NCBI GenBank assembly: GCA_012270965.1
Contig: JAAXHJ010000055.1
Span: forward strand, 15,345 to 79,344
DNA from: Candidatus Palauibacter poriticola
GTDB lineage: Bacteria > Gemmatimonadota > Gemmatimonadetes > Palauibacterales > Palauibacteraceae
DNA: 64,000 bases
Direction of reading: 5' to 3'
Below the pieces are notes generated by a model, which ran no database searches, was not told the origin of the DNA, and was given only the letters and a program-made list of their open reading frames with translations. A program made the position numbers and the translations under genes. Shown here one piece after another: positions 19,214 through 26,181 of this stretch (position 1 is its first letter; every line of letters starts with the position of its first letter).

Positions 19214-19274
19214 ACTCACGGTTCCGTCGGCGAGGGTGCGGAGCACTTGAGGCGTCGGGGCCGGGACCGTGAGT
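19214..19274. other. Inverted repeat/hairpin between the HNH stop and the EcoRII remnant
   Basis: ACTCACGGTTCC (19214-19225) and GGGACCGTGAGT (19263-19274) match 11/12, with an inner GTGC-GGA-GCAC stem. Confidence 0.65.
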
Positions 19275-20182
19275 TAGGGGTGGATCCCGAACACCCGCTT
19301 GCGATGAAACCTGAGAAAGTTCGGATGCGGGCGCTGCGCGGGCGCTGCGGGCAGCTTCAAGCGACGGTCGTCGTTGATGATTCGAAAGAAGGGCTCGGGG
19401 ATGGCCGACTCCTTGAGTAGCAGCGCGTAGTCGTCGCGGACGGAGATGAGGCCGCGGTCGAACATCCAATGCGCGGTTCCGCACAGCGCGAGGCCGTTGC
19501 GCATGCTGTCCGGCCCGTTCGCGGCGACCGGCCGGATGTGGGCGGCCTGGACCTCCGGTCTCCCGCCGCCGTTGATGATCCGGAGTCCGGTGATCGCGCA
19601 CGTATTGTTGTACGCCTGCTTCACTGCGGTGGAGAAGACGCGGTCGCGGAACGGCCTGTGTATGAGCTGCTCGAACACGGGGCGCTCCGGCACGACTGGG
19701 TTCCCGGTGCCAATTCTGGCTGGGTTGTCCGCAACGAATGGTTGTGCCTCGTGCGCCTGACGCTGGAAGCCGGCGGCGAGGATGACGTGATATTCCGTGT
19801 CGGGCAGGGGTCTCACAGAGCGTCCGAATCTGCCCTTGTTCGTCGTACCGTCGGCCTTGCGAAGGCTCTGTTCGTAGTAGAAGCCGGCCTCGCGGAACGG
19901 GACGGCATCGTCGAACTCCAAATAATGCTCGACGTAGCCGTAGAAACGATCAGCCCGTGCGGGATCGGGCCGAATGTCCACGAGGCGCGCCGTCGCGAAA
20001 TACGACTGCCGTCCTCCCGAACTCGACAGGTCGGCGGTGGAGCGACGGGGCTCGTAGTAGACAATCCAATCCCCCAGAGCAGACTTTGCCGCGTTGAGAT
20101 AGGTGCGCGGGAAGTGATACCTCTCCTCCGGCAGGTCGTCATAGCCGGGCTTCGCCTTCGTCGTGAAGACGGCCTTCGCCAT
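19274..20182 (-). CDS. HNH endonuclease with N-terminal PUA/EVE-like domain (putative modification-dependent restriction nuclease)
   Basis: C-terminal CAITG..VQAAHIRP..GPDSMRNGLALCGTAHWMFDRG; N-terminal YDDLPEERYHFP..GDWIVYYEP..YFATARL. GC visibly lower than the flanks. Confidence 0.8.
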   Translation of the reverse strand: MAKAVFTTKAKPGYDDLPEERYHFPRTYLNAAKSALGDWIVYYEPRRSTADLSSSGGRQSYFATARLVDIRPDPARADRFYGYVEHYLEFDDAVPFREAGFYYEQSLRKADGTTNKGRFGRSVRPLPDTEYHVILAAGFQRQAHEAQPFVADNPARIGTGNPVVPERPVFEQLIHRPFRDRVFSTAVKQAYNNTCAITGLRIINGGGRPEVQAAHIRPVAANGPDSMRNGLALCGTAHWMFDRGLISVRDDYALLLKESAIPEPFFRIINDDRRLKLPAAPAQRPHPNFLRFHRKRVFGIHP

Positions 20183-21600: not shown

Positions 21601-21882
21601 ATGACGGCAGACCACGAGGGACCCGAGGGCGTCCCCCGGACCCTAAAGGCTTCGGAATTCAAGGCGAAGTGTCTCAGGCTCATGGATGAAGTCGCCGCCA
21701 CCGGCGAGGAGATCATCATCACGAAGAACGGTCGCCCCGTGTCGAAGCTCGTGCCATGCGACGGACCGCCGGAGACCTGGTTCGGGCGGGATCGCGACAT
21801 CATCCGGATCCATGGCGACATCGTCGGGCCCATGCCAAGGGAGTGGTGGGACGATGGGGACGACGGAGACGACCTCTTTTGA
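21601..21882 (+). CDS. Phd/YefM family antitoxin
   Basis: LKASEFKAKCLRLMDEVAATGEEIIITKNGRPVSKLVP, with an acidic C-terminus. Confidence 0.9.
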   Translation: MTADHEGPEGVPRTLKASEFKAKCLRLMDEVAATGEEIIITKNGRPVSKLVPCDGPPETWFGRDRDIIRIHGDIVGPMPREWWDDGDDGDDLF

Positions 21883-22277
21883 TCCTGCTCGACACGCACG
21901 TTCTGCTATGGCTCAGAAGTGGAGACCGCCGTCTCGGGCGACGCGCGCGTCGGACCGTCGAGCAAGCGCTACCGCGGAGGCACGCCGCGGTCTCGGCTAT
22001 TTCCTTCTGGGAGGTTGCCATGCGCGTGCGCGGCGGGCGGCTCGATCTCCTTGGGGATCCGGAGACGTGGCGCCGTGACCTTCTTGCTCAAGGCCTCGTC
22101 GAACTCCCCGTGAACGGCATTATCGGCGCGCGGGCGGGGCTGCTCCCCGGCCTACCGGGCGACCCGGCCGATCGGCTGATCGTGGCAACGGCTCTCGAAG
22201 GACACCGACTGTTGACCGCCGACCGGCGCATCCTTGACTGGCCCGGCAAGCTGAGCCGGATCGACGCGAGGGAGTAG
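21879..22277 (+). CDS. vapC: VapC/PIN-domain toxin
   Basis: TTG start overlaps the antitoxin stop. ILLDTHVLLW, SAISFWEV, GDPADRLIVATA, LLTADRRI. Confidence 0.9.
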   Translation: MILLDTHVLLWLRSGDRRLGRRARRTVEQALPRRHAAVSAISFWEVAMRVRGGRLDLLGDPETWRRDLLAQGLVELPVNGIIGARAGLLPGLPGDPADRLIVATALEGHRLLTADRRILDWPGKLSRIDARE

Positions 22278-22306: not shown

Positions 22307-23233
22307 TCAACCGGGGCCTGTTTCGGCTCGTCCGGCTTCGAGCGCACAAACCTCGGCCATGATGCGGTTGAACTGGGTGCCGGCATGGTGCGGAACGAGG
22401 TTGCACAGGTAGACGTGCACGCCCCCCAGACGCCGTAGCGCGGCGATCGTTTCCGCGCAGTGACGCTCCGGCGTGACCCCGGCTTCGAAGGCCGAAGCCA
22501 CCGCTTCCACCGGCACTGGGAAGAAGCGGGACAGCCGCTCCAATACCGCCCGGCGGCCGTTCCGGTAGTAGAAGATGCCGAACGAGCCGGGAATCTCGAG
22601 GCCCTCGCGCTCGGCACCCTCCAGCCAGCGCTCCGCCCGCCCCAAGTCGTGGTGGGAAACCACCTGCGTGAGGTAGTAGTCCGCCTCGAACCCCGGGGCG
22701 GTGGCGAAGCCGATCTGTTCGGCGATGGGGCGGTGCAGGTTGACCCAGCCGCCGAGCGACAGTTCCGGTGCCCGCTCCCGGAATCTCTGTCGAAGCTGAT
22801 ACCCGTGGGGTAGGCAGCGCCGGGCGCCGCGCACCTTGTCTCCACCCGTCACGGTCACGCTCTGGACCCCGCGGGCCCGGGCGCGGTCCACGTAGCGCAG
22901 GCAGTAGTCGAGGGGGTGGAGACAGGTGAGGAAGGGCACCACGCGCCAGGGTTCGACCTCGTTCGCGAGGTTGGCCGTCAAGTGCTGGAGGTTCTCCTCC
23001 TCCTCCTCGCCCACGGCGCTGTCCGTGAGCATGAGGAAGGCGTCGCGCGCCGCGAGGCCCCGAATGGCATGGGAGAGGTCGATCCACATGTCCATGGCGC
23101 CGCCGCGCGTGAGTCCGCTCCGCGGCGGCCGGAGTTCGACCGTCATAGTCGGCCTTTCCCCGCGCAGCCGCGCCACGAACCGGCTGGAGCCCGGTCCCCG
23201 GGATGTGTGCTGGGAGGGTGCCGTGTCGCTCAC
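22307..23233 (-). CDS. Divergent MTHFR-like (FAD-linked TIM-barrel) protein
   Basis: TVELRPP, LTDS, PFLTC, TGGD, YLTQ, IPGSFGI align by eye with MTHFR motifs. Start uncertain (GTG 23233 or ATG 23146). Confidence 0.6.
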   Translation of the reverse strand: MSDTAPSQHTSRGPGSSRFVARLRGERPTMTVELRPPRSGLTRGGAMDMWIDLSHAIRGLAARDAFLMLTDSAVGEEEEENLQHLTANLANEVEPWRVVPFLTCLHPLDYCLRYVDRARARGVQSVTVTGGDKVRGARRCLPHGYQLRQRFRERAPELSLGGWVNLHRPIAEQIGFATAPGFEADYYLTQVVSHHDLGRAERWLEGAEREGLEIPGSFGIFYYRNGRRAVLERLSRFFPVPVEAVASAFEAGVTPERHCAETIAALRRLGGVHVYLCNLVPHHAGTQFNRIMAEVCALEAGRAETGPG

Positions 23234-23357
23234 GCCGGAAGATCCCGCCTTGTTCGTCGCGTGGCCCCGCGCGGAGCGGGCTTCGGATCGAAGGAGGATG
23301 CGGTTCGGGGGTTCCGTTGCAAAGGCGGCGGCCGAGGGTTCCGTTTCGAGCCGCGAC

Positions 23358-23485
23358 GCGTTCCACGGGGCCGCCGGTCTTCCGCGGCGGTCCCCGACGG
23401 CGTTTCCACGGGGCCGCCGGTCTTCCGCGGACGGTCCCCGACGGGTTCCCATCGGGCGCCCGTCTTCCGCGGGCGATCCCCGACC
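23358..23485. repeat. Three tandem ~43-bp hairpin repeats between divergent genes
   Basis: GTT(T/C)CCA + CGGGG-CCGCCG-gTCTTCCG-CGGCGG-t-CCCCG. Unit 3 has a changed but still paired stem, CGCCCG/CGGGCG. Confidence 0.8.
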
Positions 23486-23516
23486 CGTTCCATGCACCGC
23501 GGCCGGAGGAGTCCGA

Positions 23517-24083
23517 ATGACGGGAGAAACGACGAACGAAACGATCATCGAGGACAGGGCACTGGCGGAGGACATCCTCGCGCTCCTCGCACGCACTCCC
23601 GGGACCGTGCGCGTGCTGCTCGAGGACCTGCCTCCCGGCCTCCTGCACGCGGACGAGGGTCAGGGGACGTTCAGCCCCTTCAGCGTCCTCGGGCATCTAG
23701 TTCAAGGTGAGATCGATGACTGGATCCCGCGGGCGCGGTGGATCCTGGAACACGGCCGCGCACGGGCGTTTCCTCCCTTTGATCGCTTCGCGCACATCGA
23801 GCGGATCCGGGGCCGCGCGCTGGATGAACTACTCACCGAGTTCGAGACGCTGCGCGAGACCGGGCTCGCGGCGCTGCGGGAAGTCGTTGAGGGCGAAACC
23901 GACCTCGACGCGGGGGGACTTCACCCGGAACTGGGCGAGGTCACGCTGCGGCAACTGCTCACCACCTGGGCCGTACACGACCTAAACCATATCGCCCAGA
24001 TCGCGCGCGTCGTCGCACACCAGTTCGAGGACGAGGTCGGTCCATGGAGGGCCTACCTCCCGATCCTCCACCACGATCAGTAG
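23517..24083 (+). CDS. DinB/YfiT family protein
   Basis: FSPFSVLGHLVQGEIDDWIPR, HPELGEVTLRQLLTTWAVHDLNHIAQI. ATG 23517 with SD GGAGGA. Confidence 0.88.
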   Translation: MTGETTNETIIEDRALAEDILALLARTPGTVRVLLEDLPPGLLHADEGQGTFSPFSVLGHLVQGEIDDWIPRARWILEHGRARAFPPFDRFAHIERIRGRALDELLTEFETLRETGLAALREVVEGETDLDAGGLHPELGEVTLRQLLTTWAVHDLNHIAQIARVVAHQFEDEVGPWRAYLPILHHDQ

Positions 24084-24084
24084 C

Positions 24085-25036
24085 GACGTCGCGCGCAGCT
24101 TCCCCCTCAATACGATTCAGATGGGGCTGCGGCGGCGGGTACGGAGCATCGAGCCCGATGCCATCGTATCGCAGCGCCTGAAGCACGCGCCGGCCACGAT
24201 CGCCAAGCTACGACGGTTCCTAGGCGTGAAGGTTGTCCCGGATACAGGATATCGCAGGTTGCCGCGGTATCGTCGGCAGCCCCCATAGTGGTTCGCGAAC
24301 TGTGGGATGCGCATCGTCACTCAAAGATGAAGCACAAGCTCATCCGGGAAGTGGATATATCCAGTGGCCCAAATTGTCCGGCTATCGTGGTATTCATCTG
24401 GTATGCCGTTATCGAAGCGGCCGGAACGAGACGTACAACGGGCTTCAGGTCGAAATCCAACTCCGTTCGAAGCTTCAACACGCGTGGGCCACTGCGGTTG
24501 AGACGGCCGGAGCCATCAAGGATCAGGCTCTGAAGTCCAGCGAAGGGAATGCGGACTGGTCGCGGTTCTTCGCACTGGCGGGATCGTGGCTGGCCATAAG
24601 GGAACGCTCTCCGATGGTTCCAGAGACTCCGTGGGACCCGGTCGCTCTCCGAGACTCGTTGGTACTGCTCGCGAACGATCTCAACGTGGTCGGCACGCTG
24701 GACGACTATCGAAGGTTTATTAGCTACGCTCCAGAGCGTCTGCCGCCACACTGTCACTATTTTCTTCTTCAACGGAGGCCCGATGAGCGATCGATGACGG
24801 TATCGGGTTTTCGGAAATCGCAACTCGCGAGGGCTGCAAGATTGTACGAAGAGAGAGAAGAGAGAATCCGAGGAATTGCTGGCGCGGAAGTCGTCCTTGT
24901 CGCCATGGATTCCGTAGCGAACTTGCGCGCGGCCTATCCGAACTACCTGTTCGATACTGACCTGTTCATTGAGGAACTTGATCTTGCGACGCGGAGGCGA
25001 GTGCACCTGCCCGGACATCCACTCCATCGGCGATAG
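24085..25036 (+). pseudogene. N-terminally truncated, frameshifted RelA/SpoT-domain toxSAS of CapRel type (fused toxin-antitoxin)
   Basis: Joined across three frames: SFPLNTIQMGLRRR..IVSQRLK..K / LSRIQDIAGCRGIVGSP / IVVRELWDAH..IREVD / YIQWPKLSGYRGIHL..VEIQLRSKLQHAWATAVE..EGNADWSRFF..EVVLVAMDSVANLRAAYPNYLFDT. Indels at about 24232 (+G), 24280-24284 (+C) and 24356 (-T). No start codon. Low GC. Confidence 0.8.
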
Positions 25037-25044
25037 CCGGCGTC

Positions 25045-26181
25045 CTATCGGCGGATACGCGGGCTGTCGGAGAGAGGTGTGGACTCACCCTTTTTGGGCC
25101 GTCGCTCAGCCTCGGCCGCGTCGACGGCGGCTCCGAGGGAGTCCGTGTAGGGCGGGCGATGGATGCCGCGTTCGGTGACGATGCCGGTCACGAGTTCCGC
25201 CGGCGTGATGTCGAACGCCGGGCTGTAGACGCCTGCGGCCTCGGGGGCGAGGAGGGGACCGAAACCGCGGCGGACCTCGTCCGCGTCGCGGTGCTCGATC
25301 GGGATGTCCGCGCCGGTGGGTGTGCCGAGGTCCACGGTGGAGGTCGGCGCGAGGACGTAGAACGGGACTCCGTGGCGTTGGGCCAGCACGGCCAGCGGGT
25401 ACGTGCCGATCTTGTTCGCGACGTCGCCGTTGGCCGCGATGCGGTCGGAACCCACGAACGCGATGTCGGGCGGGTCCGAGGCGAAGAGCGATCCGGCCAT
25501 GTTGTCGGCGAGCACGGTCACCTCGATGCCGGCGCGGGACAGCTCCCACGCGGTAAGGCGGCTCCCTTGAAGGAGGGGGCGGGTCTCGTCGGCGAAGACT
25601 CGGACCCGGCGACCGGCCTCCGCCGCCACGTAGACGGGGGCGAGGGCCGTCCCGATGCCGCCCGTGGCGAGCGACCCCGCGTTGCAATGCGTGATCACGG
25701 ATTCGCCGCCCGCAAGCAGCCCCGCCGCGTGCTCGCCGATCGCGCGGCACATGCGGCGGTCCTCCTCGTGGATGGCGTCGGCTTCCGCCGCCAGCGCCGC
25801 GGCCAGTGCTCCCGCATCCCCGGTGGCGGCATCAAGGCGGGCGCGCTGGCGACGGACCGCCCATGCGAGGTTGACCGCCGTGGGCCGGGCGTCGGCCAGC
25901 CGGTCGGCCCAGCCGGCGAACCGGTCGCGCAGACCGTCCGCCGAGACTCCCTCCGCGGCGACCTGCCGGGCCAGAGCCGCAAGACCGATGGCGGCGGTGA
26001 TCCCGATGAGCGGCGCGCCCCGCACGCGCAGGCTCCGGATCGCCTCGATGAAGTCGTCGAGGGTCGAGAGTTCCCTCTCCTCGTGGACGCCGGGAAGGAG
26101 CGTCTGGTCGAGGATCAGCGCGCTCCGCCCCCCGGGGGCCCAGCGGATCGTTTCCGGCACCGAGAACTCGCGATCGTTCAT
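25045..26181 (-). CDS. mtnA: S-methyl-5-thioribose-1-phosphate isomerase
   Basis: LDQTLLP, VRGAPLIG, RPTAVNL, THCNAGSLAT, ETRPLLQGSRLTAWEL, ANKIGTY, YSPAFDITP. Start ATG 26181. Confidence 0.93.
   Translation of the reverse strand: MNDREFSVPETIRWAPGGRSALILDQTLLPGVHEERELSTLDDFIEAIRSLRVRGAPLIGITAAIGLAALARQVAAEGVSADGLRDRFAGWADRLADARPTAVNLAWAVRRQRARLDAATGDAGALAAALAAEADAIHEEDRRMCRAIGEHAAGLLAGGESVITHCNAGSLATGGIGTALAPVYVAAEAGRRVRVFADETRPLLQGSRLTAWELSRAGIEVTVLADNMAGSLFASDPPDIAFVGSDRIAANGDVANKIGTYPLAVLAQRHGVPFYVLAPTSTVDLGTPTGADIPIEHRDADEVRRGFGPLLAPEAAGVYSPAFDITPAELVTGIVTERGIHRPPYTDSLGAAVDAAEAERRPKKGESTPLSDSPRIRR

Follow-up and report, generated by a model that had tools for sequence, protein, structure and literature searches.

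A probable fixed pseudogene of a fused CapRel-type toxSAS toxin–antitoxin gene in Candidatus Palauibacter poriticola

CapRel-SJ46, the fused toxSAS toxin–antitoxin of the Salmonella prophage SJ46 (PDB 7ZTB; 9ERV for its complex with Bas11 Gp54; PMC9712102, PMC11578894), is a single polypeptide that inhibits itself, is released by a phage protein and arrests translation by pyrophosphorylating tRNA (PMC9712102); tRNA pyrophosphorylation, activation by a phage protein and abortive-infection defence are known only for the SJ46, Ebc and Kp homologues (PMC9712102). The unfused systems CapRel:ATcapRel and PhRel:ATphRel (PMC7229694, PMC9712102) have the same toxSAS catalytic domain and are two-gene operons, with separate antitoxins that are homologues of the C-terminal part of fused proteins (PMC9712102). 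RelQ and RelP (YjbM/YwaC; PDB 5DEC, 6EWZ, 6FGK) share the RelA_SpoT nucleotidyltransferase fold of the N-terminal half, have no C-terminal autoinhibitory/sensor domain and make (p)ppGpp. Here we report that a 64,000-nucleotide stretch of the Candidatus Palauibacter poriticola genome (contig JAAXHJ010000055.1, positions 15,345 to 79,344; hereafter the window) carries, at 24091–25036 on the + strand, the remnant of a gene of the fused type, which we consider, with a probability of about 0.9, to be a true and fixed pseudogene of a CapRel-type toxSAS toxin–antitoxin gene. This is the ordinary decay of a known defence gene and nothing new in kind, and it leaves the knowledge of how CapRel works unchanged.

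The intact orthologues of the remnant resemble CapRel-SJ46 in being one polypeptide of ~360–370 amino acids, in having a RelA/SpoT-type synthetase domain (toxSYNTH) with a G-loop Tyr and two ATP-coordinating Arg residues, followed by anchor helices and a pseudo-zinc-finger domain (pseudo-ZFD), and in ending with an autoinhibition segment of the form V-L-x-A...A-Y-P-N-Y. Unlike the prophage-borne CapRel-SJ46, the Palauibacter gene is chromosomal, at a conserved locus between a DinB_2 gene and an mtnA-like gene of marine host-associated Gemmatimonadota, and its sensor segment (the pseudo-ZFD) is the part least similar to SJ46; the window copy differs further in being a pseudogene that has lost 47 N-terminal codons and acquired three frameshifts. 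In contrast to the two-gene operons, the window and all orthologous loci have one fused reading frame without a small partner gene. By analogy with the mechanism described for CapRel (PMC9712102), the ancestral 361-amino-acid protein would have had an N-terminal toxSYNTH pyrophosphokinase domain kept closed by its own C-terminal pseudo-ZFD, with the YXXY motif plugging the ATP site; a phage protein bound to this C-terminal domain would have opened the enzyme, which would then have pyrophosphorylated the 3'-CCA ends of tRNAs, stopped translation and aborted the infection. Such a biochemical activity and an anti-phage role in the Palauibacter clade are what homology leads us to expect.

A RelA/SpoT-domain remnant spread over several reading frames

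By homology search, 361-amino-acid proteins (P0001–P0003) were found that are 72–82% identical to the longest open reading frame of the locus (267 amino acids) over its length, one of them listed at NCBI under the name RelA/SpoT domain protein, from Candidatus Palauibacter sp. The lesions were then mapped by tblastn of the intact orthologue P0001 and by DNA alignment with four orthologous loci (L001, L003, L004 and L006), according to which the remnant corresponds to the last 314 of 361 codons, read successively in frames 1, 2, 0 and 2. The plain list of open reading frames between the upstream stop codon and 25036 gives only fragments (24121–24288, 55 amino acids; 24288–24533, 81 amino acids; 24233–25036, 267 amino acids), in agreement with the initial annotation, a model-made note on the letters alone, which had described a broken CapRel-like gene visible only in part. 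The motifs quoted there were all recovered in the three-frame translation, spread across three frames: SQRLK, QDIAGCR and SGYRGIH, then EIQLR..QHAWA, EG..DW.RFF and a C-terminal segment, present as EIQLRSKLQHAWA, EGNADWSRFF and VVLVAMDSVANLRAAYPNY. The amino acid identity to P0001 was 82% over the 267-residue reading frame and 88.5% over the 313 comparable codons. This reading frame also matched Pfam RelA_SpoT (PF04607, E 8.8e-9) and the PADLOC family PDC-S33 (E 6.4e-71), the 55-residue frame matching the profile positions immediately preceding; together with the identity to P0001, these values exclude a chance resemblance. The region of the remnant is the deepest GC trough within the surrounding 15 kb (56–57% versus 70% for the window).

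The remnant is disrupted by one deletion and three indels, all features given below being on the + strand. At the deletion junction (24084–24090), ~211 bp are missing relative to the four aligned loci, comprising a 77-bp intergenic and promoter region, the start codon and codons 1–47, all of which are present in L001. Homology to the orthologues begins at ~24088–24091, only 5–8 nucleotides past the stop codon of the upstream DinB_2 gene (TAG, 24081–24083), so that the N-terminal region and start, suspected to be absent on first reading, are indeed lost, with the truncation point between codons 47 and 48 of the intact 361-codon alleles that sister genomes carry at the same locus. Segment A (24091–24231, codons 48–94) is in frame 1 and contains QRLK, which by tblastn, DNA alignment and residue mapping is the equivalent of the ATP-binding Arg R79 of SJ46. 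It ends at the first indel (24231–24232), one extra base that gives GG instead of the single G of all orthologues and shifts the frame from 1 to 2. Segment B (24233–24283, codons 95–111, frame 2; LSRIQDIAGCRGIVGSP) contains the equivalent of the ATP-binding Arg R116 and runs into the second indel (24280–24284), a run of five C with one extra base relative to the orthologues, which shifts the frame from 2 to 0. Segment C (24285–24356, codons 112–135, frame 0; IVVRELWDAHRHSKMKHKLIREVD), assigned like segment B by tblastn and DNA alignment, is followed by the third indel (24356–24358), in which one base was lost from the codon of Tyr136 (GAT-AT versus GAT/GAC TAC), returning the frame from 0 to 2; Tyr136 is invariant across a 54-sequence alignment of the family. 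The three frameshifts lie where the initial annotation had placed them (24231–24232, 24280–24284 and 24354–24358), within ~130 bp of the toxSYNTH core. Its description of all three as indels in short homopolymers within about 130 bp holds for the spacing and for the GG and C5 runs; the third is the loss of a T from a TT pair, between 24356 and 24357, which is not a true homopolymer.

Segment D (24359–25036) comprises codons 137–361 and the TAG stop codon (25034–25036); the last 225 codons (24359–25033) and the stop are uninterrupted. Mapping from P0001, by tblastn, the secondary structure of its AlphaFold2 model and the motif definitions of PMC9712102, places in it the Tyr of the SGYRG G-loop (24383–24385), the EIQLR..QHAWA motif, the anchor helices, the equivalent of the pseudo-ZFD (~24758–24904) and YPNY, the YXXY motif (24935–24946). 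The 267-residue reading frame (24233–25036), which opens with TTG, is thus a composite by its own translation and tblastn match: its codons at 24285–24358 are out-of-frame filler, and it is authentic only from Tyr136 on. A gene caller would report it as a 267-amino-acid 'RelA/SpoT domain protein', and the remnant will score as a match to the profiles of defence finders, which could wrongly count a working CapRel/PDC-S33 system; this is a warning for annotation.

Family membership of the intact orthologues

We assigned the family on the intact orthologue P0001. Its sequence matched CapRel-SJ46 (7ZTB, 9ERV) nearly from end to end by phmmer (E 1.4e-37, residues 8–339 against 15–362 of 373), whereas ordinary small alarmone synthetases matched only its catalytic core (E 5e-9 or worse). 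An AlphaFold2 model of P0001 built from the 54-sequence alignment had a mean predicted local distance difference test score (pLDDT) of 87.9, and in a Foldseek search its top matches were again 7ZTB and 9ERV (E ~1e-21, TM 0.64–0.69, 30% identity, 357–360 aligned columns), followed by RelP and RelQ, which aligned to the N-terminal half only (E ~1e-7, TMq 0.32–0.42). The root-mean-square deviation between the model and 7ZTB/9ERV was ~10 Å, which would fit a closed model compared with an open crystal form. The pseudo-ZFD is described as a three-stranded antiparallel sheet with a helix between strands 2 and 3 (PMC9712102), and in the C-terminal part of the model two strands (270–276 and 281–287), a helix (289–305) and a third strand (313–318) agree with this topology, which allowed us to assign the pseudo-ZFD, along with the anchor helices, on the orthologue.

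Key residues were mapped through the phmmer alignment of P0001 with 7ZTB and the residue roles given in PMC9712102. The equivalents of the ATP-coordinating R79 and R116 and of the G-loop Y155 of SJ46 are kept both in the orthologues and in the remnant (QRLK, GCR and SGYRG), as are those of V338, L339, A341, A351, Y352 and Y355 (VVLVA...AAYPNY): VVLVAMDSVANLRAAYPNY of the remnant aligns with VLLATNNIKSLKKAYPNY of 7ZTB, with V, L, A, A, Y and Y identical. The interface residue A77 of SJ46 is Ser in the Palauibacter clade; of six interface residues tested, the orthologues keep five. PF04607 was detected on the remnant reading frame and on all intact orthologues, indicating a toxSYNTH domain in each. 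The intact orthologues matched PDC-S33 (profile PDLC04999) at ~1e-112 over profile positions 1–342 of 349, and CapRel-SJ46 itself matched the whole profile at 1.2e-84; PDC-S33, a candidate-family label for which a literature search found no papers, can therefore be equated with the fused-CapRel family and denotes no separate biology.

The remnant could in principle derive from a housekeeping small alarmone synthetase, that is, a (p)ppGpp synthetase like RelQ or RelP and not a defence toxin. Such an origin would agree with Pfam detecting only the generic RelA_SpoT domain, and with the best NCBIfam match being the YjbM GTP diphosphokinase model (RelQ/YjbM equivalog NF053588); however, P0001 reached 42.6 bits with that model and the remnant 24.4 bits, where the cut-off is 320, placing P0001 far below the threshold of that family. 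In addition, the structural alignment covers RelQ and RelP over the N-terminal half only and CapRel over the full length, and nothing in RelQ or RelP corresponds to the last 150 residues, which include the YXXY motif. We hence regard a housekeeping origin as exceedingly improbable. The intact gene is, on its sequence and predicted structure, a member of the fused CapRel toxSAS family, and the CapRel-like fused architecture first proposed from the letters survives these comparisons, including the possibility, raised there as a refutation, that the repaired protein would hit an ordinary non-toxic synthetase or have no CapRel-type C-terminus.

A two-gene toxSAS module with an adjoining partner was also considered and rejected, the flanking genes being DinB_2 and mtnA. 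Each orthologous locus consists of a single gene flanked by DinB_2 on the same strand and by mtnA or a 407–409-amino-acid gene on the opposite strand, and no small co-oriented open reading frame that could be a separate antitoxin was present at any orthologous locus examined. The 407–409-amino-acid gene was dismissed as a partner of capRel as well, given its weak, sub-cut-off match to a DUF5128 beta-propeller, its lack of a PADLOC match and its absence from several genomes with an intact capRel. The window copy itself has no intact reading frame, with 47 codons and the start deleted and three frameshifts, and is therefore a pseudogene of the CapRel family and not a working member of it.

Reality and age of the lesions

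All of the lesions were reproduced in independent data. Independently assembled contigs of four sequencing runs, namely X1 and X2 (sample S1, study P1), X4 (sample S2, study P2) and X8 (sample S3, study P2, a coral reef metagenome like X4), extend across the deletion junction and the three indels with neither a difference nor a gap; the junction is spanned without differences by contigs of X1, X2 and X4, the first indel is the same in those of X1, X2, X4 and X8, the second and third are likewise the same in independent contigs, and a single X2 contig covers all four lesions in one piece. When seven neighbouring genes were compared with their L001 orthologues, each gave a single full-length high-scoring segment pair without a change of frame, indicating that the assembly is not generally prone to indels. 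The lesions are thus genuine and not assembly artefacts.

The initial annotation had left open an intact allele obscured by assembly errors, in which case sequencing or assembly would have gone wrong in short homopolymers and produced the three indels, and perhaps the truncation too. Short runs (GG and C5) do hold two of the indels, all three are crowded into ~130 bp, and the supporting runs are of low depth. Nevertheless, every lesion recurs with zero differences in the contigs of four runs, which come from three samples of two studies; a Nextera-type adapter tail at an X1 contig suggests short-read data, in which runs of 2–5 nucleotides are seldom miscalled; homopolymer errors do not account for a loss of 211 bp; the adjoining genes are free of frame breaks; and the remnant is also substituted at positions that are invariant in the family. 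An error of this kind is, accordingly, very unlikely, and the suggestion did not withstand the comparison. Phase variation or programmed frameshifting was rejected too, as the runs, at 2–5 nucleotides, are too short, all samples agree in sequence and no start codon is left.

With the upstream region, the start codon and 47 codons lost, three frameshifts and additional substitutions, no active toxin can be made and the locus is non-functional for defence; the remnant as a whole is probably without function. That the gene was inactivated to neutralise its toxicity, as the initial annotation suggested, is conjecture. To see how far decay has proceeded, we compared substitution patterns over the 313 comparable codons. 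The dN/dS of the window against the orthologues was 0.07–0.13, in the same range as among pairs of intact orthologues, showing that most of the divergence arose while the gene was functional and, because a value of about 0.07 is also that of the closer intact pairs, that the gene was lost recently compared with the divergence of the species. At positions identical in the other four lineages, 13 private amino acid changes were counted in the window lineage, compared with 2 in its nearest relative L001; the private non-synonymous to synonymous ratio is 13:24 for the window and 2:19 for L001, a borderline difference (Fisher p = 0.059) that suggests relaxed selection on the window branch without demonstrating it. 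Several of these changes are radical (Y to C, L to S, S to W and D to G), and in P0001 numbering and the 54-sequence alignment they include H49R and R79H at family-invariant positions and Y152C and L204S at near-invariant ones. A rough calculation from 17 private non-synonymous and 33 synonymous base-level changes, assuming a baseline omega of 0.07 and three non-synonymous sites for each synonymous one, would place the inactivation in about the last tenth of the private branch of the window.

The private changes are unevenly distributed along the gene, with 13 non-synonymous to 12 synonymous in codons 48–160 and 4 to 21 in codons 161–361 (Fisher p = 0.016, post hoc). This skew is compatible with recent decay, yet it is the sole observation that leaves room for a retained C-terminal product. 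On that account the toxin part is dead, but the cell would still make a separate antitoxin-like or decoy protein, comparable to the ATcapRel and ATphRel antitoxins of unfused systems, from the 3' reading frame (authentic from codon 136) or from a shorter part of it that covers the anchors, pseudo-ZFD and YXXY; the uninterrupted 3' two-thirds, kept under purifying selection, would then be a natural 'un-fusion' of a fused toxin–antitoxin, and its product could buffer incoming CapRel toxins or titrate the phage trigger. The uninterrupted codons 137–361 and the conservation of all autoinhibition-interface residues speak for it together with the skew. A recent inactivation would, however, produce the same skew just as readily, the counts are low, and the comparison was picked once the data were known. 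A scan of 23300–25200 found no promoter-like site and no terminator; no convincing start is available, as no spacer separates the TTG at 24233 from a Shine-Dalgarno-like AAGG; and the locus is in none of the RNA runs. Neither is the C-terminal part spared in other broken lineages: a frameshift lies at codon 283 of L013, large pieces are deleted from L051, and 5 non-synonymous to 4 synonymous changes are found in codons 211–361 of L007. Continued expression of such a protein, and with it the 'un-fusion' under purifying selection, is therefore very unlikely.

Several points weigh against a fixed, silent CapRel pseudogene and should be set beside the evidence for it. The depth of the supporting runs is low (~3–7x) and assembled contigs drop rare variants, so that a minority intact allele may still exist in the population. 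The search of RNA runs concerned runs of which none holds the locus, and non-expression of the 3' reading frame is therefore assumed; DNA and RNA runs of 2026 with the same organism label yielded no reads from Candidatus Palauibacter poriticola within the portion sampled. Identity to the characterised CapRel-SJ46 is only ~30%, and the scarcity of private replacements in codons 161–361 is unlike a long neutral decay.

History and surroundings of the locus in Candidatus Palauibacter

The remnant lies in a gene order common to the window and its relatives: aldo-keto reductase, Phd/YefM antitoxin, PIN toxin, a gene of ~260 amino acids (261 amino acids), DinB_2, capRel, mtnA (IF-2B) and an S9 peptidase. 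The upstream neighbour (23529–24083, +) is intact, with a match to PF12867 (E 4.2e-10) and a single full-length tblastn segment pair of 86% identity to its L001 orthologue; it belongs to the DinB_2 superfamily and is not the DNA polymerase IV that the name 'dinB' in the initial annotation implied. The downstream neighbour, an mtnA-like gene of the IF-2B family (25045–26181, −), is convergent and likewise intact (PF01008, E 2.4e-72; full-length single segment pair, 91% identity to the L001 orthologue), its stop codon lying 9 nucleotides from that of the remnant.

A capRel-like gene occupies the same position between DinB_2 and mtnA in all Palauibacter-like lineages recovered (at least 11), and orthologues of 361 codons are intact in L001/L002, L003, L004–L006 and L009–L012, which represent at least seven sister lineages. 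In L007 (2796–5621; identical in L008), a 1.74-kb insertion with a 3-bp target duplication interrupts the gene at codon 162; the insert encodes a 450-amino-acid DDE_Tnp_1_4/DDE_Tnp_1 transposase on the opposite strand, and both halves of the gene are otherwise open. L013 (4001–5139) has a one-base deletion at nucleotide 849 and a 57-bp insert at nucleotide 955, which leave the toxSYNTH part open without a pseudo-ZFD, and L051 (4001–4559) has internal deletions of 108 and 410 bp, both loci being known from assembled sequence only. As the 410-bp deletion of L051 ends at nucleotide 849, the site of the L013 deletion, the two lesions may share a common ancestral event. The toxin domain was struck in the window and in L007/L008, and the frameshift of L013 falls at the start of the pseudo-ZFD; provided that this lesion is genuine and the copy is expressed, L013 would make a toxin that has lost its lock. 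The gene has thus been inactivated independently at least three and probably four times among ~11 lineages, the cases of L013 and L051 being taken from assemblies, by means as varied as a 5' deletion with frameshifts, insertion of a mobile element, and internal deletions or a frameshift. Given at least three such knock-outs in a host-associated genus, it is conceivable that CapRel is recurrently selected against there. The locus is an example of turnover among costly abortive-infection genes, here in symbionts from reef and sponge metagenomes.

The gene differs in composition from its surroundings: at the five loci measured (window, L001, L003, L004 and L007) its GC content is 58–62% (66–77% at third codon positions, GC3) versus 66–73% (GC3 80–93%) for the flanks. 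Relatives at 35–55% identity are found across many bacterial and some archaeal phyla, and a foreign origin of the capRel-like gene is plausible from these sequence features. The occurrence at the same locus in at least 11 congeneric lineages indicates that acquisition predates their divergence. A recent horizontal acquisition by the Palauibacter poriticola genome was consequently rejected, on the synteny in these lineages and on the low GC and GC3 at all five loci; of the decayed, horizontally acquired gene first proposed, the decay stands and the low GC fits a foreign source, but the gene is not a recent arrival. It is one resident chromosomal CapRel gene, older than the divergence of the Palauibacter lineages, that has been knocked out in several ways.

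Further differences between lineages were seen around the locus. A gene of 406–409 amino acids lies between capRel and mtnA in L001 (7121–8350, −), L003 (7218–8438, −) and L007 (5630–6853, −), and is also present in L010–L013 and L051 and absent from the window, L004 and L009, which makes it a presence/absence polymorphism; it has a sub-threshold match to a 6-bladed beta-propeller (DUF5128) and no PADLOC match. Between a BNR/Sortilin-like gene and the aldo-keto reductase there is a variable slot, filled in the window by an HNH_2 nuclease (19274–20182, −; Pfam 1.4e-11; PADLOC 'HNH') and in L004 by a 500-amino-acid Fic protein (846–2348, +; PADLOC SoFic, 3.7e-25), and empty in L001 and L003. The Phd/YefM antitoxin and PIN toxin pair (21601–22277, +), 2 kb upstream of the remnant, looks intact. 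The PIN gene was called as 85 amino acids without a Pfam match in L001, L003 and L008, versus 132 amino acids with a PIN match in L004 and L007; the short calls may reflect the choice of start codon or decay. The gene between PIN and DinB_2 (22307–23233, −), conserved at ~290–310 amino acids and syntenic in all relatives, has no Pfam match at E ≤ 0.001 in the window or in L001. Upstream of the DinB_2 gene, at 23330–23500, lie tandem GC-rich repeats of ~43 nucleotides (…GTTCCACGGGGCCGCCGGTCTTCCGCGG…).

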